Assembly (NCBI RefSeq): GCF_030013205.1
Contig: NZ_CP122648.1
Source: Escherichia coli
GTDB lineage: Bacteria; Pseudomonadota; Gammaproteobacteria; Enterobacterales; Enterobacteriaceae
Direction: 5' to 3' (one strand)
DNA length: 64,000 nt
The notes beneath the pieces are model-generated. The model was not told the DNA's origin and did not search any database. It saw nothing but the letters and a program-made list of their open reading frames with translations. The translations under genes were made by a program, and so were the position numbers. Shown in pieces: positions 3,976 to 23,118 of the stretch. The stretch's first letter is position 1. Each line of letters begins with the position of its first letter.

Positions 3976-4563
3976 TTGTGACCATAAAACATTTATCAAA
4001 AATCTACTACTAGCATAGCAAAGCTACAATTAACATAACCTTAATAGCCCCAACATAAAGAACAATCTGAATAGCTGCTCTATTTATTTCCGCTTGTTTA
4101 AGTTAAATATTTCCGCGCATCGATTAAAGATGATGTATCGTTTTCTGCGATGGGAATAGTCAAAAAAGAAAAACCAAGTATTTTTTGATGACAAAATGCA
4201 ACCAAGGAAAAATTTCTTTATTTTTTAATTGGATACAAAAATCACCTTAACGAAGAATATAATATATATCGTCAACCCATGCTCATGGCAGATTATTTTC
4301 TGAGCACGCAACCGCAGCTAACACCATTGCTATTAACAAATTTGCATCAATCCGCCATCAATTTACACACATTATTATGTGGTAATTGCCAAACGCTAAA
4401 TATGCGTTTTGTTATCTATGTATAAAAACAGCAACTTCAATGTCTTAATGGCAGTTTTTCTTGATTTTAATCAGCATTCATCGCCAATTTATTGGGCATA
4501 TTTTTTCCTTAAGTTTTAGGAATTTTTTATTATTTACTTTGGGGCCTGGAGACAGGAAAAATT

Positions 4564-5949
4564 ATGCTGACATTCATTGAACTCCTTATTGGGGTTGTGG
4601 TTATTGTGGGTGTAGCTCGCTACATCATTAAAGGGTATTCCGCCACTGGCGTGTTATTTGTCGGTGGCCTGTTATTGCTGATTATCAGTGCCATTATGGG
4701 GCACAAAGTGTTACCGTCCAGCCAGGCTTCAACAGGCTACAGCGCCACGGATATCGTTGAATACGTTAAAATATTGCTAATGAGCCGCGGCGGCGACCTC
4801 GGCATGATGATTATGATGCTGTGTGGCTTTGCCGCTTACATGACCCATATCGGCGCGAATGATATGGTGGTCAAGCTGGCGTCAAAACCATTGCAGTATA
4901 TTAACTCCCCTTACCTGCTGATGATTGCCGCCTATTTTGTCGCCTGTCTGATGTCTCTGGCCGTCTCTTCCGCGACCGGTCTGGGTGTTTTGCTGATGGC
5001 AACCCTGTTTCCGGTGATGGTAAACGTTGGTATCAGCCGTGGTGCAGCTGCTGCTATTTGTGCCTCCCCGGCGGCGATTATTCTCGCACCGACTTCAGGG
5101 GATGTGGTGCTGGCGGCGCAGGCTTCCGAAATGTCGCTGATTGACTTCGCCTTCAAAACGACGCTGCCTATCTCAATTGCTGCAATTATCGGCATGGCGA
5201 TCGCCCACTTCTTCTGGCAACGTTATCTGGATAAAAAAGAGCACATCTCTCATGAAATGTTAGATGTCAGTGAAATCACCACCACTGCTCCTGCGTTTTA
5301 TGCCATTTTGCCGTTCACGCCGATCATCGGAGTGCTGATTTTTGACGGCAAATGGGGTCCGCAATTACACATCATCACTATTCTGGTGATTTGTATGCTG
5401 ATTGCCTCCATTCTGGAGTTCATCCGCAGCTTTAATACCCAGAAAGTTTTCTCTGGTCTGGAAGTGGCTTATCGCGGGATGGCAGATGCGTTTGCTAACG
5501 TGGTGATGCTGCTGGTTGCCGCTGGGGTATTCGCTCAGGGGCTTAGCACCATCGGCTTTATTCAAAGTCTGATTTCTATCGCCACCTCGTTTGGTTCGGC
5601 GAGTATCATCCTGATGCTGGTATTAGTGATCCTGACAATGCTGGCGGCAGTCACGACCGGTTCAGGCAATGCGCCGTTTTATGCGTTTGTTGAGATGATC
5701 CCGAAACTGGCGCACTCTTCCGGCATTAACCCGGCGTATTTGACTATCCCAATGCTGCAGGCGTCAAACCTCGGTCGTACCCTGTCACCCGTTTCTGGCG
5801 TAGTCGTTGCGGTTGCCGGGATGGCGAAAATCTCACCATTTGAAGTCGTAAAACGCACCTCGGTGCCGGTGCTTGTTGGTTTGGTGATTGTTATCGTTGC
5901 TACAGAGCTGATGGTGCCAGGAACGGCAGCCGCGGTCACAGGCAAGTAA
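4564..5949 (+). CDS. dcuC: anaerobic C4-dicarboxylate transporter DcuC
   Basis: 461-aa polytopic membrane ORF, ATG start with GGAGACAGG Shine-Dalgarno; matches DcuC. Confidence 0.95.
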   Translation: MLTFIELLIGVVVIVGVARYIIKGYSATGVLFVGGLLLLIISAIMGHKVLPSSQASTGYSATDIVEYVKILLMSRGGDLGMMIMMLCGFAAYMTHIGANDMVVKLASKPLQYINSPYLLMIAAYFVACLMSLAVSSATGLGVLLMATLFPVMVNVGISRGAAAAICASPAAIILAPTSGDVVLAAQASEMSLIDFAFKTTLPISIAAIIGMAIAHFFWQRYLDKKEHISHEMLDVSEITTTAPAFYAILPFTPIIGVLIFDGKWGPQLHIITILVICMLIASILEFIRSFNTQKVFSGLEVAYRGMADAFANVVMLLVAAGVFAQGLSTIGFIQSLISIATSFGSASIILMLVLVILTMLAAVTTGSGNAPFYAFVEMIPKLAHSSGINPAYLTIPMLQASNLGRTLSPVSGVVVAVAGMAKISPFEVVKRTSVPVLVGLVIVIVATELMVPGTAAAVTGK

Positions 5950-5989: not shown

Positions 5990-6670
5990 TCACCCACTGT
6001 GGTATATGCGTTGCGGTCTGCCAACTTTGCCGTGAACAATTTCAGCAATAATCAGATGGCGGCTGGCGCAATATTCAAGATAACGTCTGGCAGTGGTGCG
6101 GCTGATAGTCAGTGCCTGCGCCACCGTTTCTGCCGTATGTTGCACACCAGGCTCTTTAAACAGTTTTCGCACTGCGTTTAGCGTCAAGGGGTCAATGCCG
6201 GTCGGCAGTTCGTCTTTGGGTTCACCGCGAGCATAGGCATTAAACATCTCATCAATTTGCTTCTGGCTGGCGCTATCAATACTTTCCAGCATATGTTTAC
6301 GCTGGCGGAAACGGGTTAGCGTTTGCCCCAGACGTTCATAGGCAATTGGCTTAATGAGATAATCAAATACACCACAACGTACGGCTTCAGACACCGTTTC
6401 CATATCACTGGCTGCAGTGGTAAACACCACGTCGCCGGGATAATGCGCCTGCACCAGTTCATGCAGTAAATTAATCCCTCTACCGTCAGGAAGATAGTTA
6501 TCGAGCAAGATTAGCCCCGGCTTAAAACGCTCGATCATCATTCGGGCCTGCGCCAGGTTTCCCGCCAGTAATATCTGACTGAATCCGGGAATGTGACGAA
6601 TATATTCCGCATGCATCTCTGCCAGCGGCGTTTCGTCCTCAACGATCAATAGGGTTAATGGAGCTGTCAT
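5990..6670 (-). CDS. dpiA: response regulator DpiA (CitB)
   Basis: 226-aa ORF with receiver domain (LLIVEDE...) and C-terminal HTH; matches DpiA. Confidence 0.94.
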   Translation of the reverse strand: MTAPLTLLIVEDETPLAEMHAEYIRHIPGFSQILLAGNLAQARMMIERFKPGLILLDNYLPDGRGINLLHELVQAHYPGDVVFTTAASDMETVSEAVRCGVFDYLIKPIAYERLGQTLTRFRQRKHMLESIDSASQKQIDEMFNAYARGEPKDELPTGIDPLTLNAVRKLFKEPGVQHTAETVAQALTISRTTARRYLEYCASRHLIIAEIVHGKVGRPQRIYHSG

Positions 6671-8297
6671 TAGGTTTCACTTTCGGAATATAGATTGAAA
6701 ATAAGGTACCGCAGGGATCATTATCTTCGAGAGTGATAACACCACCGCAGCGCGTTACGTAGCTGGCAATCAAGTACAACCCAATGCCATGTTCACCGGG
6801 CTCGTCAGCACGCGTACTGACACCCTGCTCAAATATTTTGTCTCGTAGAGACTCTGGAACGCCGCAGCCCTGATCGGCGACTTCAATCACCACATCATCG
6901 CCTTCATCGCTGAGGAATAATTCAACGATCTTGTTTCCTTCATCGCTACGTAGGCTGGCTTCGAAGGCGTTATCAAGTAAATTGCCAACAATGGCTGCAA
7001 ACTCGGTGCTGTCCAGTCCTGGCGGCAGTTGCGAAAGCTGACTTCCGGGGACGATGACCATTTTTAGCCCCAGTTCGCGGGCGCGCTGCACTTTACCAAA
7101 AAGCAGCCCCGCCACCTGGCGATCGGCAAACGCCTCGCGCAGGCTATCAATAAGCTGTTGCTGGGCCTGAGACTCCCCCTGCACCATCGCCAACACGCGA
7201 TCATACTCTTTCATCTGCAACAGACCATTGAGCGTCGACATCCAATTGAGATGCTCGTGTCGCAATGTGCGCAGGCTCTCGACGTATTGTTTAATTTGCG
7301 TCAGTTGCGCATTGAGGGTGGATATTTCGTCTTTACTACGAAAGCTGATAATGGCCCCCAGCAAATCATCACCAGAACGAATAGCTTCCCGGTTGGCAAT
7401 AACGCTCAGACCGTTAAAGTTCGCCACCACATCCTGTCGTTTTTCATCAATCTGTTCGGTAAAGAAATCGGCGGGCCTGACCACTTCAGCAATGGGTTTA
7501 CCCAACCATTGCCGTCCGGGGGAGCTCAGCCCCAGCATCTTTCTTGCGTTACGATTGATGGCGGTAATGTAACCGTGCGGATCCACCGCAATGAGCCCTT
7601 CATAAACCGAACTAAACAGCGCCTCTTGCTGACGGACCACGCGTGCGATTTGCTTTGGCTCCATGCCCATCATCTGCCGACGGATATGCGCGGCCAGGAA
7701 CCACGACAGCAACATCAGAATCCCTAACAGCACGACAAACACGCCAGCCATCGGTAATAAAAACTCAGCCCGCCAGCTATCGATTTTACTCACCAGGTAG
7801 CCAATCGACACCACGCCGATGACTTTTCCATCGTCATCAAAGATTGGCGTTTTGGCACGCATCGCCATGCCAATTGACCCTTTCCCGGTGATGAAGTAGC
7901 TCTCCCCTTTCTCCAGCGCGCCCGGTTTGGTGAACTGCATAGGATAACCAATTTTCTCCGGATTAGGATGGTAAAGACGAATCGAGTGCCGATCGCCAAT
8001 CACCACATAATCGAAATCAGTATCTCTTTGTAATTTATCAGCGATGGTCGCCAGCCTCTTGTAGTCACGCGTTTTCACTGCGCTGATGATACTGTCATTA
8101 GAAGCAATAATTTTTGCCTGATTCATTGCCATATCGCGCACATGAAGCGTTAAATAGTCCTCAAAACTGGCCGTAAAATATTGCGCCAGGGCTGCAATGA
8201 CAAATATTGAGAACACCAGAATCAGCAAAAAGATACGCAGCGGAAATGCCAGTCTTTGGAAAAATGCAAACTGTTTATTCTCGTTAAGCTGCAACAT
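6639..8297 (-). CDS. dpiB: sensor histidine kinase DpiB (CitA)
   Basis: 552 aa from internal ATG (MLQLNENKQFAFFQ...); overlaps the dpiA start by 32 nt. Confidence 0.93.
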   Translation of the reverse strand: MLQLNENKQFAFFQRLAFPLRIFLLILVFSIFVIAALAQYFTASFEDYLTLHVRDMAMNQAKIIASNDSIISAVKTRDYKRLATIADKLQRDTDFDYVVIGDRHSIRLYHPNPEKIGYPMQFTKPGALEKGESYFITGKGSIGMAMRAKTPIFDDDGKVIGVVSIGYLVSKIDSWRAEFLLPMAGVFVVLLGILMLLSWFLAAHIRRQMMGMEPKQIARVVRQQEALFSSVYEGLIAVDPHGYITAINRNARKMLGLSSPGRQWLGKPIAEVVRPADFFTEQIDEKRQDVVANFNGLSVIANREAIRSGDDLLGAIISFRSKDEISTLNAQLTQIKQYVESLRTLRHEHLNWMSTLNGLLQMKEYDRVLAMVQGESQAQQQLIDSLREAFADRQVAGLLFGKVQRARELGLKMVIVPGSQLSQLPPGLDSTEFAAIVGNLLDNAFEASLRSDEGNKIVELFLSDEGDDVVIEVADQGCGVPESLRDKIFEQGVSTRADEPGEHGIGLYLIASYVTRCGGVITLEDNDPCGTLFSIYIPKVKPNDSSINPIDR

Positions 8298-8676
8298 TGT
8301 TTTCCTTGCGGGTTGTCCCGAGCCTCTTTGACGAATGTAATTAAAATGTTGAATCAAAATACATAGATATTAAATATAATCGTGGCAAATTTTATTCATT
8401 AAATCAATTAAATCACTTAAACCTGCGGGTCATTTCGTAATTACATTAATTAAAAAACTTAAAACCATTAAATAAATAAAAAACCACTAACTCTATGTGA
8501 AATAAATCAAAATTTCACGCTGCAATACTCCTTAGGATGTATAGCGAAAGGAGAAAAAGATATACCTCGATCGCCCCCCTTTCTCCCAAGTGAAAATAAA
8601 AGGTTATCAGTTTGCAACATCGAACAACATTTGTTGCAAATCGATAACAACATGCACCTTCAGGATACTATTTATT

Positions 8677-9735
8677 ATGTTCGGCAATGATATTTTCACC
8701 CGTGTAAAACGTTCAGAAAATAAAAAAATGGCGGAAATCGCCCAATTCCTGCATGAAAATGATTTGAGCGTTGACACCACAGTCGAAGTATTTATTACCG
8801 TAACCCGCGATGAAAAGCTTATCGCGTGCGGTGGAATTGCCGGAAATATTATTAAATGCGTTGCTATCAGTGAATCCGTTCGCGGTGAAGGACTGGCGCT
8901 GACATTAGCCACCGAGCTAATTAACCTCGCCTATGAGCGGCACAGCACGCATCTGTTTATTTATACCAAAACCGAATACGAGGCGCTGTTCCGCCAGTGC
9001 GGTTTTTCCACGCTGACCAGTGTACCCGGCGTGATGGTGCTGATGGAAAACAGCGCCACGCGACTGAAACGCTATGCCGAATCGCTGAAAAAATTTCGTC
9101 ATCCAGGGAACAAGATTGGCTGCATTGTGATGAACGCCAATCCCTTTACGAATGGTCACCGTTATCTGATTCAACAGGCTGCAGCACAGTGCGACTGGTT
9201 GCATCTGTTTTTAGTTAAAGAAGATTCTTCACGCTTTCCCTATGAAGACCGGCTGGATCTGGTGTTAAAAGGCACCGCCGATATTCCACGCCTGACTGTG
9301 CATCGCGGCTCCGAATACATCATCTCCCGCGCTACGTTCCCTTGCTACTTCATTAAAGAACAGAGCGTCATTAACCATTGTTACACCGAAATTGATCTGA
9401 AGATTTTCCGTCAGTACCTCGCTCCCGCGCTGGGTGTAACTCACCGCTTTGTCGGTACTGAACCCTTTTGTCGCGTTACCGCCCAGTACAACCAGGATAT
9501 GCGCTACTGGCTGGAAACGCCGACTATCTCCGCACCGCCCATCGAACTGGTTGAAATTGAGCGGCTGCGTTACCAGGAGATGCCGATATCCGCTTCCCGG
9601 GTACGTCAACTGCTGGCGAAAAACGATCTCACGGCTATCGCGCCGCTGGTCCCTGCAGTCACGCTGCATTATTTGCAGAACCTGCTTGAGCACTCCCGCC
9701 AGGACGCGGCAGCTCGTCAAAAGACCCCCGCATGA
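8677..9735 (+). CDS. citC: [citrate (pro-3S)-lyase] ligase CitC
   Basis: 352 aa from internal ATG (MFGNDIFTRV...); matches CitC. Confidence 0.93.
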   Translation: MFGNDIFTRVKRSENKKMAEIAQFLHENDLSVDTTVEVFITVTRDEKLIACGGIAGNIIKCVAISESVRGEGLALTLATELINLAYERHSTHLFIYTKTEYEALFRQCGFSTLTSVPGVMVLMENSATRLKRYAESLKKFRHPGNKIGCIVMNANPFTNGHRYLIQQAAAQCDWLHLFLVKEDSSRFPYEDRLDLVLKGTADIPRLTVHRGSEYIISRATFPCYFIKEQSVINHCYTEIDLKIFRQYLAPALGVTHRFVGTEPFCRVTAQYNQDMRYWLETPTISAPPIELVEIERLRYQEMPISASRVRQLLAKNDLTAIAPLVPAVTLHYLQNLLEHSRQDAAARQKTPA

Positions 9736-9749
9736 GAAACAGGTGAAAA

Positions 9750-10046
9750 ATGAAAATAAACCAGCCCGCCGTTGCAGGCACCCTTGAGTCTGGGGATGTG
9801 ATGATACGCATCGCCCCACTCGATACGCAGGATATCGACCTGCAAATCAACAGCAGCGTTGAGAAACAGTTTGGCGATGCAATTCGCACCACCATTCTGG
9901 ACGTTCTCGCCCGCTACAACGTGCGCGGCGTACAGCTGAATGTCGATGATAAAGGCGCACTGGACTGCATTTTACGTGCACGACTGGAAGCCCTGCTGGC
10001 ACGCGCCAGCGGTATCCCGGCTCTGCCATGGGAGGATTGCCAATGA
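9750..10046 (+). CDS. citD: citrate lyase acyl carrier protein (gamma subunit)
   Basis: 98-aa ORF with AGGTGA Shine-Dalgarno upstream; matches CitD. Confidence 0.94.
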
Positions 10047-10951
10047 TTTCCGCTTCGCTGCAACAACGTAAAACTCGCACCCGCCGCAGCATGTTGTTTG
10101 TGCCTGGTGCCAATGCCGCGATGGTCAGCAACTCCTTCATCTACCCGGCTGATGCCCTGATGTTTGACCTCGAAGACTCCGTGGCATTGCGTGAAAAAGA
10201 TACCGCCCGCCGCATGGTTTACCACGCGCTGCAACATCCGCTGTATCGCGATATTGAAACCATTGTGCGTGTAAACGCGCTGGATTCCGAATGGGGTGTT
10301 AACGACCTGGAAGCCGTCGTTCGCGGTGGTGCGGACGTTGTGCGTCTGCCGAAAACCGATACCGCTCAGGATGTTCTGGATATCGAAAAAGAGATCCTGC
10401 GTATCGAAAAAGCCTGTGGTCGTGAACCCGGCAGTACCGGCTTGCTGGCGGCGATTGAATCTCCGCTGGGCATTACCCGCGCAGTGGAAATCGCTCACGC
10501 TTCCGAGCGTTTGATCGGTATCGCCCTCGGTGCAGAAGACTATGTGCGCAACCTGCGTACAGAACGCTCCCCGGAAGGAACTGAACTGCTGTTCGCTCGC
10601 TGCTCCATTTTGCAGGCCGCGCGCTCTGCGGGTATTCAGGCGTTCGATACCGTCTATTCCGACGCTAACAACGAAGCCGGATTCCTGCAAGAAGCCGCCC
10701 ACATCAAACAGCTGGGCTTTGACGGCAAATCGCTGATCAACCCGCGTCAGATTGATCTGCTGCACAACCTCTACGCACCGACCCAGAAAGAAGTGGATCA
10801 CGCCCGCCGCGTCGTAGAAGCCGCTGAAGCCGCCGCTCGCGAAGGCCTCGGCGTAGTTTCCCTGAACGGCAAGATGGTGGACGGTCCGGTTATCGATCGC
10901 GCCCGTCTGGTGCTCTCCCGCGCAGAACTTTCCGGCATCGGCGAAGAATAA
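10043..10951 (+). CDS. citE: citrate lyase beta subunit (citryl-CoA lyase)
   Basis: 302 aa from internal ATG ([10 protein letters not shown]...); 4-nt overlap with the citD stop. Confidence 0.94.
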
Positions 10952-10961
10952 GGCAATCAAA

Positions 10962-12494
10962 ATGACGCAGAAAATTGAACAATCTCAACGACAAGAACGG
11001 GTAGCGGCCTGGAATCGTCGCGCTGAATGCGATCTTGCCACTTTCCAAAACTCACCAAAGCAAACCTACCAGGCTGAAAAAGCGCGCGATCGCAAACTGT
11101 GCGCCAACCTGGAAGAAGCGATTCGTCGCTCGGGTTTACAGGACGGCATGACGGTTTCCTTCCATCACGCTTTCCGTGGCGGTGACCTGACCGTCAATAT
11201 GGTGATGGACGTCATCGCGAAGATGGGCTTTAAAAACCTGACCCTGGCCTCCAGCTCCCTGAGTGATTGCCATGCGCCGCTGGTAGAACACATTCGCCAG
11301 GGCGTGGTTACCCGCATTTATACCTCTGGCCTGCGCGGTCCACTGGCGGAAGAAATCTCCCGTGGTCTGCTGGCGGAACCGGTGCAAATCCACTCTCACG
11401 GCGGACGTGTGCATCTGGTACAGAGCGGCGAACTGAATATAGACGTGGCTTTCCTCGGCGTCCCGTCCTGTGATGAATTCGGTAATGCCAACGGCTACAC
11501 CGGTAAAGCCTGCTGCGGCTCCCTCGGCTATGCAATGGTTGATGCCGACAACGCGAAACAGGTTGTGATGCTCACTGAAGAACTGCTGCCTTATCCTCAT
11601 AATCCGGCAAGCATTGAGCAAGATCAGGTTGATCTGATCGTCAAAGTTGATCGCGTTGGCGATGCCGCGAAAATCGGCGCTGGCGCGACCCGTATGACCA
11701 CTAACCCGCGCGAACTGCTTATTGCCCGTAGCGCTGCGGATGTGATTGTCAACTCAGGCTACTTTAAAGAAGGTTTCTCCATGCAGACCGGCACCGGCGG
11801 CGCATCGCTGGCGGTAACCCGTTTCCTGGAAGACAAAATGCGTAGCCGCGATATTCGCGCCGACTTCGCCCTTGGCGGTATTACTGCAACGATGGTTGAT
11901 CTGCACGAAAAAGGTCTGATCCGCAAACTGCTGGATGTACAGAGCTTTGACAGCCACGCTGCACAATCGCTGGCCCGTAACCCCAATCACATCGAAATCA
12001 GCGCCAACCAGTACGCTAACTGGGGTTCAAAAGGCGCATCGGTTGATCGTCTCGACGTGGTGGTACTGAGCGCGCTGGAAATTGACACCCAGTTCAACGT
12101 TAACGTGCTGACCGGCTCTGACGGCGTACTGCGTGGTGCTTCCGGTGGTCACTGCGATACCGCGATTGCCTCTGCGCTTTCCATCATCGTCGCGCCGCTG
12201 GTACGCGGCCGTATTCCGACTCTGGTGGATAACGTGCTGACCTGCATCACCCCGGGCTCCAGTGTCGATATTCTGGTCACAGACCACGGTATCGCAGTTA
12301 ACCCGGCACGTCCGGAACTGGCAGAACGTCTGCAGGAAGCGGGGATCAAAGTGGTTTCTATTGAGTGGCTGCGTGAACGTGCGCGTCTGCTGACCGGTGA
12401 ACCACAGCCGATTGAATTCACCGACCGCGTCGTTGCTGTTGTGCGTTACCGCGATGGCTCGGTGATCGATGTTGTGCATCAGGTGAAGGAATAA
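10962..12494 (+). CDS. citF: citrate lyase alpha subunit (citrate CoA-transferase)
   Basis: 510-aa ORF; matches CitF. Confidence 0.95.
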   Translation: MTQKIEQSQRQERVAAWNRRAECDLATFQNSPKQTYQAEKARDRKLCANLEEAIRRSGLQDGMTVSFHHAFRGGDLTVNMVMDVIAKMGFKNLTLASSSLSDCHAPLVEHIRQGVVTRIYTSGLRGPLAEEISRGLLAEPVQIHSHGGRVHLVQSGELNIDVAFLGVPSCDEFGNANGYTGKACCGSLGYAMVDADNAKQVVMLTEELLPYPHNPASIEQDQVDLIVKVDRVGDAAKIGAGATRMTTNPRELLIARSAADVIVNSGYFKEGFSMQTGTGGASLAVTRFLEDKMRSRDIRADFALGGITATMVDLHEKGLIRKLLDVQSFDSHAAQSLARNPNHIEISANQYANWGSKGASVDRLDVVVLSALEIDTQFNVNVLTGSDGVLRGASGGHCDTAIASALSIIVAPLVRGRIPTLVDNVLTCITPGSSVDILVTDHGIAVNPARPELAERLQEAGIKVVSIEWLRERARLLTGEPQPIEFTDRVVAVVRYRDGSVIDVVHQVKE

Positions 12495-17814: not shown

Positions 17815-18525
17815 GCCATAATAAATATCCTCCGGCATAGCCGGAGGTTTTTCAAATGCGCCTATAAGGCTCTCTTACCAGCCGCGCCCTAACAGGCGCA
17901 CACGATCTGACATTTGCATCCAACTTCGTTACTTACGGCCCGTAAACGGGCTGCCCGGATAGGGAATCGATAACTGCTCTCCCATTTTATCCTCTTCAAG
18001 CTGGTGCTTTATGTAATCCTGTATCTTCGCCGTGTTCTTACCCACTGTATCGACGTAGTACCCTCTGCACCAGAACTCCCTGTTCCTGTATTTGAATTTC
18101 AAATCACCAAACTGCTCGTAAAGCATCAGACTGCTTTTCCCTTTCAGATATCCCATAAACCCGGATACGCTCATTTTGGGCGGGATCTCCACAAGCATAT
18201 GGATATGATCTGCACAGCATTCAGCTTCCAGAATCCGTACGCTTTTCCACTCACACAGCTTTCTCAAAATACTGCCTATTGCTCTACGCTTCTCTCTGTA
18301 GAACACCTGTCTTCGGTATTTTGGCGCAAAAACTATGTGATATTTACAGTTCCATCGGGTGTGCGCTAAGCTCTTTTCGTTCCCCATTGGGACCCCCTTT
18401 TGATTTCTTGTTTGACACTTGCAGTTGCCAGACCGCAAGGTGTTTTAACAAATCAAAAGGGGTTTTAATAACTGGCTCAAAGCTGAAAGCTTTCCGGAAC
18501 CCCCAGCCTAGCTGGGGGTTTTCTG
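17815..18525 (-). mobile_element. IS200-like insertion sequence (IS200/IS605 family); boundaries approximate
   Basis: about 710 bp of extra DNA between the uspG and ahpF terminators; it encodes a 152-aa Y1 (HUH) transposase and has the IS200 left-end hairpin (aacccccagcctagctgggggtt) plus an RBS-proximal structured leader. Confidence 0.75.
17929..18387 (-). CDS. tnpA: IS200 transposase TnpA (Y1 HUH transposase)
   Basis: 152 aa from internal ATG (MGNEKSLAHTRWNCKYHIVFAPKYRR... with the HxH motif in ADHIHML); near-identical to Salmonella IS200 TnpA from memory. Confidence 0.93.
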   Translation of the reverse strand: MGNEKSLAHTRWNCKYHIVFAPKYRRQVFYREKRRAIGSILRKLCEWKSVRILEAECCADHIHMLVEIPPKMSVSGFMGYLKGKSSLMLYEQFGDLKFKYRNREFWCRGYYVDTVGKNTAKIQDYIKHQLEEDKMGEQLSIPYPGSPFTGRK

Positions 18526-20326: not shown

Positions 20327-20890
20327 TTAGATTTTACCAACCAGGTCCAGAGACGGAGCCAGAGTTGCTTCACCTTCTTTCCATTTAGCCGGGCAAACTT
20401 CACCTGGGTGAGAAGCTACGTACTGTGCTGCTTTGATTTTACGCAGCAGGTCAGACGCGTCACGGCCAATGCCTTCAGCGGTAACTTCGATTGCCTGGAT
20501 GATACCCTGCGGGTCAACAACGAAGGTCGCACGGTCAGCCAGACCTTCATCTTCACGCATGTTGTCGAAGTTACGGGTCAGGGCGCCAGTCGGGTCGCCG
20601 ATCATCGCATATTTGATTTTAGCGATGGTTTCAGAGCTGCTGTGCCATGCTTTGTGGGTGAAGTGAGTATCGGTAGATACTGCGTATACGTCTACGCCCA
20701 GTTTCTGCAGTTCTTCGTAGTGGTCAGCAACGTCACCCAGTTCGGTCGGGCATACGAAAGTAAAGTCAGCCGGGTAGAAGAAGAAGACGCTCCAGCGGCC
20801 TTCGGTATCTTTTTCGGTGATTTCGATGAATTCGCCGTTTTTGAATGCCTGGTTTTTAAAAGGTTTAATTTTGGTGTTAATCAAGGACAT
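20327..20890 (-). CDS. ahpC: alkyl hydroperoxide reductase subunit C (peroxiredoxin)
   Basis: 187-aa [24 protein letters not shown]...; matches AhpC. Confidence 0.97.
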
Positions 20891-21261
20891 CTATACTTCC
20901 TCCGTGTTTTCGATGAGATGTAAGGTAACCAATTTTTGCCGATTCGGCTAATGCGTTTCCATTATCAAATCGATAAGTTTTACCTTACAACCTTCGTAAG
21001 ACAACTTTGTGAACTTTGCACCGCCAGCGGCGATAAAAAGTAAAATGGCCCCCTTTCCAGGTGACCGTGTAATCTGAACTACCCTTTGGTATCTTCAGCG
21101 CCTGCCTGCAGGCTGAGGTGTTGCCCTTACAAATGCAACAACGACATGGATTACAACACCCTCATAAACAAAGGGCAATCACCTGATCTAAGCTCTTACC
21201 TATGGCAGTGATAGGTTATGCCTTTTACCCGACTTTTGCACTGACTGAAAAGGACAAATTA

Positions 21262-22008
21262 ATGTTAAAAAAGATACTTTTACTGGCTCTGCTTCCTGCA
21301 ATCGCCTTCGCAGAGGAACTTCCTGCCCCAGTAAAAGCGATTGAAAAACAGGGCATTACAATCATCAAAACGTTCGATGCTCCCGGAGGAATGAAAGGTT
21401 ATCTCGGAAAGTATCAGGATATGGGCGTCACCATCTACCTGACTCCAGATGGTAAGCACGCTATCTCCGGTTACATGTACAACGAGAAAGGTGAAAACCT
21501 GAGTAACACACTTATCGAAAAAGAAATTTACGCACCAGCCGGACGCGAAATGTGGCAACGGATGGAACAATCCCACTGGCTCCTCGACGGTAAAAAAGAC
21601 GCGCCGGTCATTGTTTACGTCTTCGCCGATCCGTTCTGCCCATATTGTAAACAGTTCTGGCAGCAGGCGCGCCCGTGGGTAGATTCTGGCAAAGTGCAAT
21701 TAAGAACATTGTTGGTTGGGGTTATCAAGCCAGAAAGCCCGGCGACAGCAGCGGCAATTCTTGCCGCCAAAGATCCCGCAAAAACCTGGCAAGAATATGA
21801 AGCCTCTGGTGGCAAGCTTAAGCTAAACGTGCCTGCAAACGTAAGTACAGAGCAAATGAAAGTGTTAAGCGACAACGAGAAACTCATGGACGATCTGGGG
21901 GCAAATGTCACACCAGCTATCTACTACATGAGTAAGGAAAATACACTGCAACAGGCCGTGGGGTTGCCCGATCAGAAAACGCTTAATATCATTATGGGGA
22001 ATAAATAA
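21262..22008 (+). CDS. dsbG: periplasmic disulfide isomerase DsbG
   Basis: 248 aa from internal ATG ([17 protein letters not shown]..., signal peptide; CPYC active site). Confidence 0.94.
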
Positions 22009-22215: not shown

Positions 22216-23118
22216 ATGGCGAATCTTTATGACCTAAAAAAATTTGATCTGAATTTACTGGTCATATTTGAGTGCATTTATCAACACCTCAGCATTAGCA
22301 AAGCAGCAGAATCATTATATATAACGCCCTCTGCTGTTAGTCAGTCGTTACAACGTTTACGTGCGCAATTTAATGACCCGTTATTCATTCGCTCAGGGAA
22401 AGGTATCGCGCCGACTACGACAGGGTTAAATCTGCATCATCATCTTGAGAAAAATCTCAGAGGCCTTGAACAAACGATCAATATTGTTAATAAGTCTGAG
22501 CTAAAGAAAAATTTTATTATCTACGGTCCTCAGCTTATTTCTTGTACTAATAACAACATGCTAATCCGCTGTCTTAGACAAGATACTTCAATCGATATAG
22601 AATGCCATGACATACTGCTTTCAGCTGAAAATGCCGAAGAACTGTTGGTTCAACGCAAAACTGACCTGGCAATTACACTACAACCAGTAATTAGCCGCTC
22701 TGTCATCTGCATGCCGTTACATACTATTCGCAATTCTCTTATATGTAGCAACAAACATCCTCGTATTACCGATACCAGTAACTATGAACAAATTATCGCC
22801 GAAGAATTCACCTTGTTGATATCTAAATCAGCAGGGATTGACGAAATTCAAATGGACATAGATGAACGTTTTATGAACCGTAAAGTTTCATTTCGCAGTT
22901 CTTCTTTGTTGACGATAATTAATAGTATTTCTGTTACTGACTTATTGGGCATTGTGCCCACCGAACTGTACGATTTACATCGTGATTTTTTGAAGTTACA
23001 AGAGATAAAACTGGAACAACCACTTCCTGCGGTTAAACTTTATATTTCCTATAACAAGGCTTCGTTGAACAACCTTGTCTTCTCACGATTCATAGATCGT
23101 TTAAATGATAGCTTCTGA
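22216..23118 (+). CDS. ybdO: LysR-family transcriptional regulator
   Basis: 300 aa from internal ATG (MANLYDLKKFDLNLLVIFE...); N-terminal HTH; very AT-rich coding sequence. Confidence 0.9.
   Translation: MANLYDLKKFDLNLLVIFECIYQHLSISKAAESLYITPSAVSQSLQRLRAQFNDPLFIRSGKGIAPTTTGLNLHHHLEKNLRGLEQTINIVNKSELKKNFIIYGPQLISCTNNNMLIRCLRQDTSIDIECHDILLSAENAEELLVQRKTDLAITLQPVISRSVICMPLHTIRNSLICSNKHPRITDTSNYEQIIAEEFTLLISKSAGIDEIQMDIDERFMNRKVSFRSSSLLTIINSISVTDLLGIVPTELYDLHRDFLKLQEIKLEQPLPAVKLYISYNKASLNNLVFSRFIDRLNDSF

Follow-up and report, generated by a model that had tools for sequence, protein, structure and literature searches.

Phased TTAAA arrays in the divergent dpiB–citC control region of Escherichia coli

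The dpiB–citC locus

The spacer between dpiB and citC is well characterised: it carries the divergent promoters of the E. coli citrate-fermentation regulon. It was analysed here within a 64-kb stretch of DNA, referred to as the window. The spacer region is E. coli chromosome: the surrounding 1 kb is 100% identical to strain K_EC180, and 5420 of 5426 complete E. coli genomes contain the same 1-kb stretch, with citC and dpiB as the annotated genes. The principal genes and the spacer are as follows:

4564–5949: DcuC, from a profile search
5990–6670, minus strand: dpiA (citB), response regulator (NCBIfam equivalog NF007467, E 4e-157; RefSeq)
6639–8297, minus strand: dpiB (citA), citrate sensor histidine kinase (NCBIfam equivalog NF011627, residues 1–552 of 552; RefSeq)
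8298–8676: dpiB–citC divergent control region, 379 bp, 31.7% GC
8662–8665, plus strand: citC Shine–Dalgarno sequence AGGA, seen directly in the sequence
8677–9735, plus strand: citC, citrate lyase ligase, first gene of citCDEFXGT (TIGR00124, E 9e-179; RefSeq)

Full-length profile matches identify the flanking genes as orthologues of dpiB and citC that diverge from the spacer: dpiB begins on the minus strand at 8297, citC on the plus strand at 8677, and the RefSeq boundaries agree. The initial annotation, which had described 8298–8676 as the 379-bp dpiB–citC spacer and as a divergent control region for anaerobic citrate fermentation, was therefore exact in its coordinates and correct in its gene assignment. 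CitD, CitE and CitF follow on the plus strand with equivalog-level profile matches. DpiA combines a Pfam Response_reg receiver domain with a DpiA-like HTH_64 DNA-binding domain, and its second-best family match in the profile search is DcuR (E 2e-39). The spacer is highly AT-rich, as had also been claimed: its GC content of 31.7% compares with 51.9% for the window, and just 0.36% of 379-bp windows across the 64 kb are as AT-rich.

For comparison, one genome per species was scanned, which yielded 80 citC loci. A divergent dpiB was present in 47 of these; together with a K-12-like locus (L001) they provided 48 spacers, mostly 320–440 bp in length. Alignments of 11 and of 27 sequences resolve the region into discrete conserved blocks set between freely varying linkers. 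Within Escherichia, substitutions pile up in the linkers and avoid the TTAAA arrays, the CRP/FNR-type site and the −10/NarL block described below. A GG column upstream of the citC ATG is conserved in the 27-sequence alignment.

TTAAA arrays upstream of citC

TTAAA occurs eight times on the plus strand of the spacer, at 8341, 8370, 8399, 8408, 8417, 8450, 8459 and 8468, and its complement TTTAA is absent from that strand, all eight copies being in the citC sense. Six copies make up two triplets spaced at exactly 9 bp (8399/8408/8417 and 8450/8459/8468). The copies at 8341 and 8370 lie outside these triplets and are not conserved, the latter being absent from K-12. Reiterated motifs had been pointed out previously, and both of the strings quoted at the time were found, at 8402–8423 and 8445–8485. 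When one mismatch is allowed in the triple pattern, the second triplet grows to five phased units (8441–8485). We describe these elements as two putative DpiA arrays:

8398–8424, plus strand: array 1, three 9-bp units ATTAAATCA, ATTAAATCA and CTTAAACCT, with TTAAA at 8399, 8408 and 8417
8441–8486, plus strand: array 2, five 9-bp units TTACATTAA, TTAAAAAAC, TTAAAACCA, TTAAATAAA and TAAAAAACC
8461–8471, plus strand: conserved core of array 2, AAAACCATTAA

The contribution of chance was gauged by shuffling the spacer 20,000 times with its dinucleotide composition preserved. TTAAA then occurred 2.8 times on average, and eight or more copies arose with P = 0.002; the maximum count of any 5-mer, however, was also about eight, owing to A-runs. 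The raw count is thus unremarkable at such AT-richness, and the signal lies instead in phasing, strand bias and conservation. Four adjacent 9-bp spacings were obtained in 0 of 20,000 shuffles, and a strand excess of eight (8:0) had P = 5e-5. The pattern TTAAANNNNTTAAA has five matches in the 64-kb window against 0.23 expected, four of them inside the spacer, and the triple 9-bp pattern is found nowhere in the window but the spacer. A repeat finder picked up the 9-bp family independently.

The AT-rich reiterated motifs are conserved among orthologous spacers. At least one exact 9-bp sense TTAAA pair is present in 39 of the 48 dpiB–citC spacers, at a near-constant distance from the citC ATG (conserved TTAAA positions at about −280/−271/−262 and −238 to −209), in genera including Escherichia, Citrobacter, Salmonella, Intestinirhabdus, Hafnia, Buttiauxella, Atlantibacter and Providencia. 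Across 18 lineages, the distances between sense TTAAA copies cluster sharply at 9 bp (30 pairs) and at 18 bp (14 pairs), whereas the antisense histogram is flat. Array 1 corresponds to a conserved alignment block at 8397–8423, within which TTAAATCAATTAAA is invariant across genera, and array 2 to a block at 8447–8484. The 11-mer AAAACCATTAA lies 170–335 bp upstream of citC, always in the citC sense, in most Enterobacterales, Serratia, Erwinia and Pantoea among them, and is almost absent elsewhere in the 7-kb loci. Among the Escherichia sequences compared, 8439–8491 is free of substitutions except for a C to T change at 8465 in K-12, and 8394–8412 is likewise spared. Conservation among related genomes had been set beforehand as a test of the motifs; phase, orientation and position are all kept from Escherichia to Providencia.

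Published work connects the arrays to DpiA. A passage of PMC10610042 that cites Scheu et al. 2012 reports a DpiA site 190–280 bp upstream of the citC start codon, which maps to 8397–8487 in the window, the span of both arrays. The same study describes an amoxicillin-evolved E. coli with a 1-bp deletion at −193 from the citC ATG (PMC10610042), corresponding to about 8483–8484 at the 3′ edge of array 2. In a biosensor study of the Citrobacter rodentium DpiAB–PcitC system, DpiA sites were placed by alignment to the EcoCyc annotation of MG1655 (PMC12405535), and EcoCyc, in the account given there, annotates DpiA sites in the dpiB–citC region. Removal of the DpiA sites from C. rodentium PcitC abolished the citrate response in an E. 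coli host (PMC12405535; bioRxiv 10.1101/2023.10.13.562223), and this foreign promoter can be driven by the DpiAB of the E. coli host (PMC12405535). Genomic SELEX attributes 11 sites to CitB (PMC4797297). The proposal that the repeated TTAAA motifs constitute multiple DpiA sites is accordingly upheld on two counts: the arrays coincide with the DpiA site reported in that passage of PMC10610042, and the C. rodentium orthologue loses its citrate response once its DpiA sites are removed. DpiA binding at the arrays and its need for induction are thus taken from the literature; the gene identities, phasing and conservation were computed here.

The citC core promoter and leader

CRP had been put forward in the initial annotation only as a protein to test for binding; a CRP-type sequence is present, not in the TTAAA arrays but beyond them on the citC side, where the following candidate promoter elements precede citC:

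8496–8511: CRP/FNR-family site TGTGA-AATAAA-TCAAA (TGTGAAATAAATCAAA), in conserved block 8496–8515
8526–8541: NarL-like 7-2-7 site TACTCCT-TA-GGATGTA (TACTCCTTAGGATGTA), overlapping the −10 hexamer, in conserved block 8524–8542
8533–8538, plus strand: predicted citC −10 hexamer TAGGAT

The first element fits the CRP/FNR consensus and is invariant as a site across genera, with 9/10 matches to the CRP core at 8496–8511 and 8/10 to the FNR consensus TTGAT-N4-ATCAA at 8497–8510. The second departs from the NarL pattern TACYYMT-NN-AKRRGTA at two positions, its left heptamer being perfect, and is conserved only in the Escherichia-to-Buttiauxella group. Matches to the CRP consensus are about as frequent in the window as expected (2 found, 1.6 expected) and individually not significant, and the same holds for NarL-like matches (2 found, 2.6 expected), which are not significant alone. 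The case for both putative sites rests on conservation and geometry, not on consensus scores. In 59 of 79 citC loci a TAnnAT hexamer lies 21 nt (±1) downstream of TGTGA-N6-TCA, and most of those 59 also have the core AACCAT(T/A)AA beginning exactly 33 nt before TGTGA. The same promoter geometry appears in four loci in which citC follows a transporter gene and does not face dpiB.

The CRP/FNR-type site is centred at 8503.5 and the −10 hexamer begins 29.5 bp further downstream, a spacing that points to class II geometry (−41.5). Transcription of citC would then start near 8545, giving a leader about 132 nt long. A sigma-70 scan of 8200–8780 returned no −35/−10 pair and no canonical promoter, as expected for an activator-dependent promoter, for which such a scan is uninformative. 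Nitrate inhibits induction of C. rodentium PcitC (PMC12405535), and NarL bound across the −10 hexamer would account for repression by nitrate. For the C. rodentium construct, cross-regulation by NarL and cAMP-CRP has been claimed, and citrate induction in E. coli requires glucose as a co-substrate (PMC12405535); the latter fits uneasily with a simple cAMP-CRP dependence of citC.

The identity of the regulator at 8496–8511 bears directly on the anaerobic requirement, of which the site would be the direct source if it were an FNR site and not a CRP site. We consider this possible, at somewhat less than even odds. The right half is a perfect match within the 8/10 agreement with TTGAT-N4-ATCAA and is of the FNR type, TCAA, in all lineages; FNR sites canonically lie at −41.5, where this one is predicted to be; and a network compilation gives FNR as a regulator of citC (PMC5311112). 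The left half, however, is of the CRP type, GTGA, in 59 of 79 loci and in most lineages, with ATGA or TTGA in Pantoea, Erwinia, Providencia and Moellerella (TTGA in Moellerella). Further against an FNR site, CRP sites are reported for the Klebsiella pneumoniae citS–citC region in a passage of PMC2735749 citing Meyer et al. 2001, and the claimed cAMP-CRP cross-regulation concerns the C. rodentium orthologue (PMC12405535). The putative site is a hybrid: its left half resembles that of a CRP site and its right half that of an FNR site.

Several further elements were located on either side of the arrays and promoter:

8334–8351: dpiB-proximal block AATGTAAT(T/A)AAAATGTT(G/T), near-invariant in 27 spacers (alignment block 8336–8350)
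8379–8391: block ATCGTnnCA(A/G)ATT just upstream of array 1, from the alignments
8590–8629: unexplained block TGAAAAyAAAAnGTTATyAnnTTGCaAC...CAACA in the predicted citC leader
8603–8648: inverted repeat with 17-nt arms and a 12-nt loop, followed by CUUUUAUUUU on the minus strand

The dpiB-proximal block contains the direct repeat TGTAA-N6-TGTTG, with its halves 11 bp apart, resembling those of the ArcA/OmpR family; an ArcA-like regulator may be proposed for 8334–8351, and TACATT (8339 to 8334, minus strand) is a candidate dpiB −10 hexamer, dpiB transcription being predicted to begin near 8327. The block at 8379–8391 can be made out in Atlantibacter, Edwardsiella and C. freundii M-21 as well.

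The leader block comprises a conserved stretch at 8592–8617 and CAACA at 8625–8629. It is non-coding, almost unchanged from Escherichia to Buttiauxella and still discernible in Pluralibacter and Edwardsiella, and it falls at +38 to +58 of the predicted transcript whatever the leader length. A structured cis-regulatory RNA was sought in the citC leader and neither a conserved fold nor a credible Rfam match was found: the RNAalifold consensus for 14 sequences was −0.54 kcal/mol, and an Rfam scan of 8100–8900 returned only noise (SCARNA7, E 0.05; tmRNA, E 0.9), far below gathering scores. An N-terminally extended CitC starting at GTG 8590 (381 aa, as Z0762 in EDL933) was rejected, indels among genera breaking the frame. 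Paralogous copies of 8586–8632 were sought in E. coli genomes, where the sequence is single-copy, and comparison of the block by eye with consensuses for sigma-54, IHF, Fur, PurR/LacI-family, TyrR, Cra and ArcA gave no fit at its conserved positions. The block may be the operator of a repressor, for which the neighbouring LysR protein CitR/YbdO is the candidate; deletion of CitR/YbdO de-represses citCDEF. CAACA repeats are found both in the leader block and upstream of citR and, since their spacings differ, we judge this coincidental. A ChIP-exo study of CitR reports no peak at citC (PMC9068703).

The hairpin at 8603–8648 has a folding energy of −18.5 kcal/mol (z = −6.2), and its right arm is conserved only within Escherichia. 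Together with CUUUUAUUUU on the minus strand, it forms a plausible intrinsic terminator for antisense transcripts; a terminator scan of 8200–8780 returned nothing, the 12-nt loop of the hairpin exceeding the loop limit of the scan. An overlapping antisense gene, nog1, has been published (PMC4683798), and its 101-codon GTG ORF is intact here on the minus strand at 8607–8912. The nog1 transcript would be one such antisense transcript.

Reading of the arrays and comparison with known systems

Taking these elements together, we assign a probability of roughly 0.88 to the reading of 8298–8676 as a DpiA-dependent dpiB–citC control region with two TTAAA arrays and an activator-dependent citC promoter. 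Under anoxia and in the presence of citrate, DpiB (CitA) phosphorylates DpiA (CitB), and DpiA-P would bind the two arrays of same-orientation 9-bp units, each consisting of (A/C)TTAAA and three variable bases. On the predicted transcript start, array 2 would occupy about −104 to −59, directly upstream of the CRP/FNR-type site and abutting it, and array 1 about −147 to −121, nearer dpiB. Array-bound DpiA would activate citCDEFXGT rightward, with the class II-type citC promoter fired by DpiA jointly with CRP or FNR, and dpiBA leftward, in positive feedback. NarL-P positioned over the −10 hexamer would confer nitrate repression.

DcuR, acting on part of the arrays instead of or besides DpiA, is a doubtful alternative; array 1 or the dpiB-proximal block would be its most likely target, in a DcuSR-to-CitAB cascade acting at the dpiBA promoter. 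Scheu et al. 2012 (J Bacteriol 194:636) reportedly place a DcuR site before citAB and find that deletion of dcuS or dcuR lowers citC expression. As DcuR is the second-best family match of DpiA (E 2e-39), similar AT-rich targets are plausible, and array 1 and the blocks at 8334–8351 and 8379–8391 lie nearer dpiB. However, the whole span from −190 to −280 is assigned to DpiA in the relevant passage of PMC10610042, and arrays 1 and 2 share one repeat unit.

Far less probable still is that the spacer is mainly an AT tract silenced by H-NS or other nucleoid proteins, with the TTAAA repeats as a by-product of composition: its GC content falls in the lowest 0.4% of the window, eight copies of one 5-mer are not unusual at such AT-richness and the RpoS holoenzyme gives a SELEX peak inside the citC/dpiB spacer (PMC5493296), showing that DNA-binding proteins are drawn to it in vitro, but against this stand the exact 9-bp phasing and 8:0 strand bias, the retention of position, phase and orientation across genera while linkers vary, and the specific DpiA site published at the array coordinates in that part of PMC10610042. 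The H-NS high-affinity motif TCGATAAATT has no match within two mismatches in 8298–8676 and is not enriched in the window. The suggestion in the initial annotation that nucleoid proteins such as H-NS also have sites here thus found no specific support, and the block-and-linker conservation points to specific sites.

With DpiA as the preferred reader of the arrays, their organisation bears on how it binds. Because the repeats are direct and in a single orientation, they suggest head-to-tail DpiA oligomers and not a symmetric dimer. A sequence search for a solved structure of the DpiA DNA-binding domain returned only the receiver domains of relatives. More generally, HTH_64 regulators may read unidirectional (A/C)TTAAA arrays whose core keeps a constant distance of 33 bp to a CRP/FNR site throughout Enterobacterales. 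If true, this would be an oligomeric mode distinct from the 10–11-bp OmpR/PhoB type, and one for which there is no structure. We regard as unlikely the joint proposition that DpiA-family regulators use strictly unidirectional 9-bp arrays and that the leader block is the operator of a repressor, two features that may be undescribed.

The region and its regulator belong to textbook E. coli physiology, are curated in EcoCyc and are in use as a citrate biosensor part; since the element is the already known DpiA-dependent control region, it is modest as a discovery. What is added is a base-level comparative map, a testable model of the citC promoter and one unexplained conserved leader element. At base level, the model predicts that citC transcription starts at about 8545 (±3), that CRP or FNR acts from a class II site and that a NarL site overlaps the −10 hexamer. 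The defined core AAAACCATTAA and its fixed spacing could aid the engineering of citrate sensors, and the core could help to interpret mutations such as the 1-bp deletion at −193.

The closest known system is the citA(dpiB)–citC region of E. coli K-12 (Yamamoto et al. 2008, 2009; Scheu et al. 2012; EcoCyc), which is the same locus with the same flanking genes. Its spacer is 97.1% identical (368/379), and the 11 differing positions include 8465 inside array 2, which is T in K-12 and C here, and one that creates the extra, non-conserved TTAAA at 8370 here. The K. pneumoniae citS–citC spacer is alike in several respects: according to the passages of PMC2735749 that cite Meyer et al. 1997 and 2001, CitB sites lie there in A+T-rich DNA together with CRP sites, so that a CitB-family regulator acts on AT-rich DNA between two diverging citrate operons, CRP activates in addition, and citC is the first gene on one side. 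Its partner operon, however, is described there as citS-oadGAB-citAB and not dpiBA, and the likeness is drawn from that description. None of the 80 citC loci is of the citS–citC type, and in the sole Klebsiella locus (L068) citC directly follows a transporter gene, with no AT-rich spacer.

In its core promoter, the region resembles class II CRP/FNR promoters, with TGTGA-N6-TCAAA at −41.5 if the start lies 7 nt after the hexamer; unlike plain class II promoters, citC has a CRP/FNR hybrid site, needs the upstream activator DpiA and has a start that is predicted. The arrays themselves recall those of OmpR, PhoB and ArcA, in which a phosphorylated response regulator likewise occupies short repeats of the same orientation and an activator-dependent promoter lies downstream. 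Those regulators use a winged helix and a register of 10–11 bp, whereas the register here is 9 bp and the DNA-binding domain a DpiA-like HTH_64.

Conserved blocks in the spacer and the citC start codon

One conserved element lies in the predicted citC leader, and two further conserved blocks lie on the dpiB side of the divergent spacer:

8590–8629, near-invariant block TGAAAAyAAAAnGTTATyAnnTTGCaAC...CAACA in the predicted citC leader
8334–8351, dpiB-proximal block with TGTAA and TGTTG at 11-bp distance, an ArcA-like direct repeat
8379–8391, second dpiB-proximal block, ATCGTnnCA(A/G)ATT, with no obvious assignment

The leader block is non-coding and single-copy; read on the minus strand it presents TGTTG, TGTTG and TGATA in 10-bp phase. 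No conserved fold was detected in it, and Rfam gave no match. On the dpiB side, the block at 8334–8351 overlaps TACATT, a possible -10 hexamer for dpiB.

The longest citC open reading frame extends from GTG 8590 to 9735 (+) and would encode 381 aa, with the start position taken for Z0762 in EDL933. Since indels among genera disrupt the frame opened by this GTG, it was rejected as the start; the true start of citC is ATG 8677 (352 aa), in agreement with RefSeq.

An antisense reading frame and an Escherichia inverted repeat

One further reading frame overlaps the 5' end of citC:

8607–8912 (-), intact GTG open reading frame of 101 codons, antisense to the citC 5' end

This frame corresponds to nog1, which is known from EHEC as an orphan gene overlapping another (PMC4683798); its product contains no Pfam domain. 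An inverted repeat at 8603–8648, present in Escherichia only, forms a predicted hairpin of -18.5 kcal/mol (z = -6.2). Because CUUUUAUUUU comes after this repeat on the minus strand (down to ~8590), the two together are a candidate intrinsic terminator, which could keep antisense (nog1) transcripts from running into dpiBA. Owing to its 12-nt loop, the hairpin at 8603–8648 was missed by the terminator scan.

Flanking regulators and other sites

Inside the window, the cit locus is flanked on both sides by genes for LysR-type regulators linked to citrate genes:

1–105, ybeF (partial)
22216–23118, citR/ybdO, annotated repressor CitR

Deletion of citR increases citCDEF expression (PMC9068703). Both citR and the DNA upstream of it are strongly AT-rich, with windows of low GC at 21841 to ~22560 and 22721 to ~23300.

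Elsewhere, an FNR-type sequence match, TTGATTTTAATCAG (one mismatch; 4461–4474), lies ~100 bp upstream of dcuC (start 4564), within a low-GC tract from 3761 to ~4640 between pagP and dcuC. An IS200C-family transposase gene (17929–18387, -) between uspG and ahpF is presumably a strain-specific insertion. Consensus-like matches cluster at 20817–20979, across the ahpC 5' end and upstream region: TTAAACCTTTTAAA at 20855, the FNR-like TTGGTGTTAATCAA at 20871, and the H-NS-motif-like TCGATGAATT at 20823 and TCGATAAGTT at 20970.

The DpiA core in Serratia and divergence from a K-12-like strain

In two Serratia citC loci (L049 and L054), an inverted copy of the DpiA core AAAACCATTAA sits between the predicted promoter and citC, ~86 bp before the gene; the usual sense copy upstream is also present. 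At least 99% identity to the 1-kb query was found in only 511 of 5420 genomes. Compared with the K-12-like strain gw25 (L001), the cit–dpi region (5990–12000) differs by 1–3%, coding DNA included, with identities of 97.3% for dpiAB, 98.8% for citC, 98.0% for citD–F and 97.1% for the spacer.
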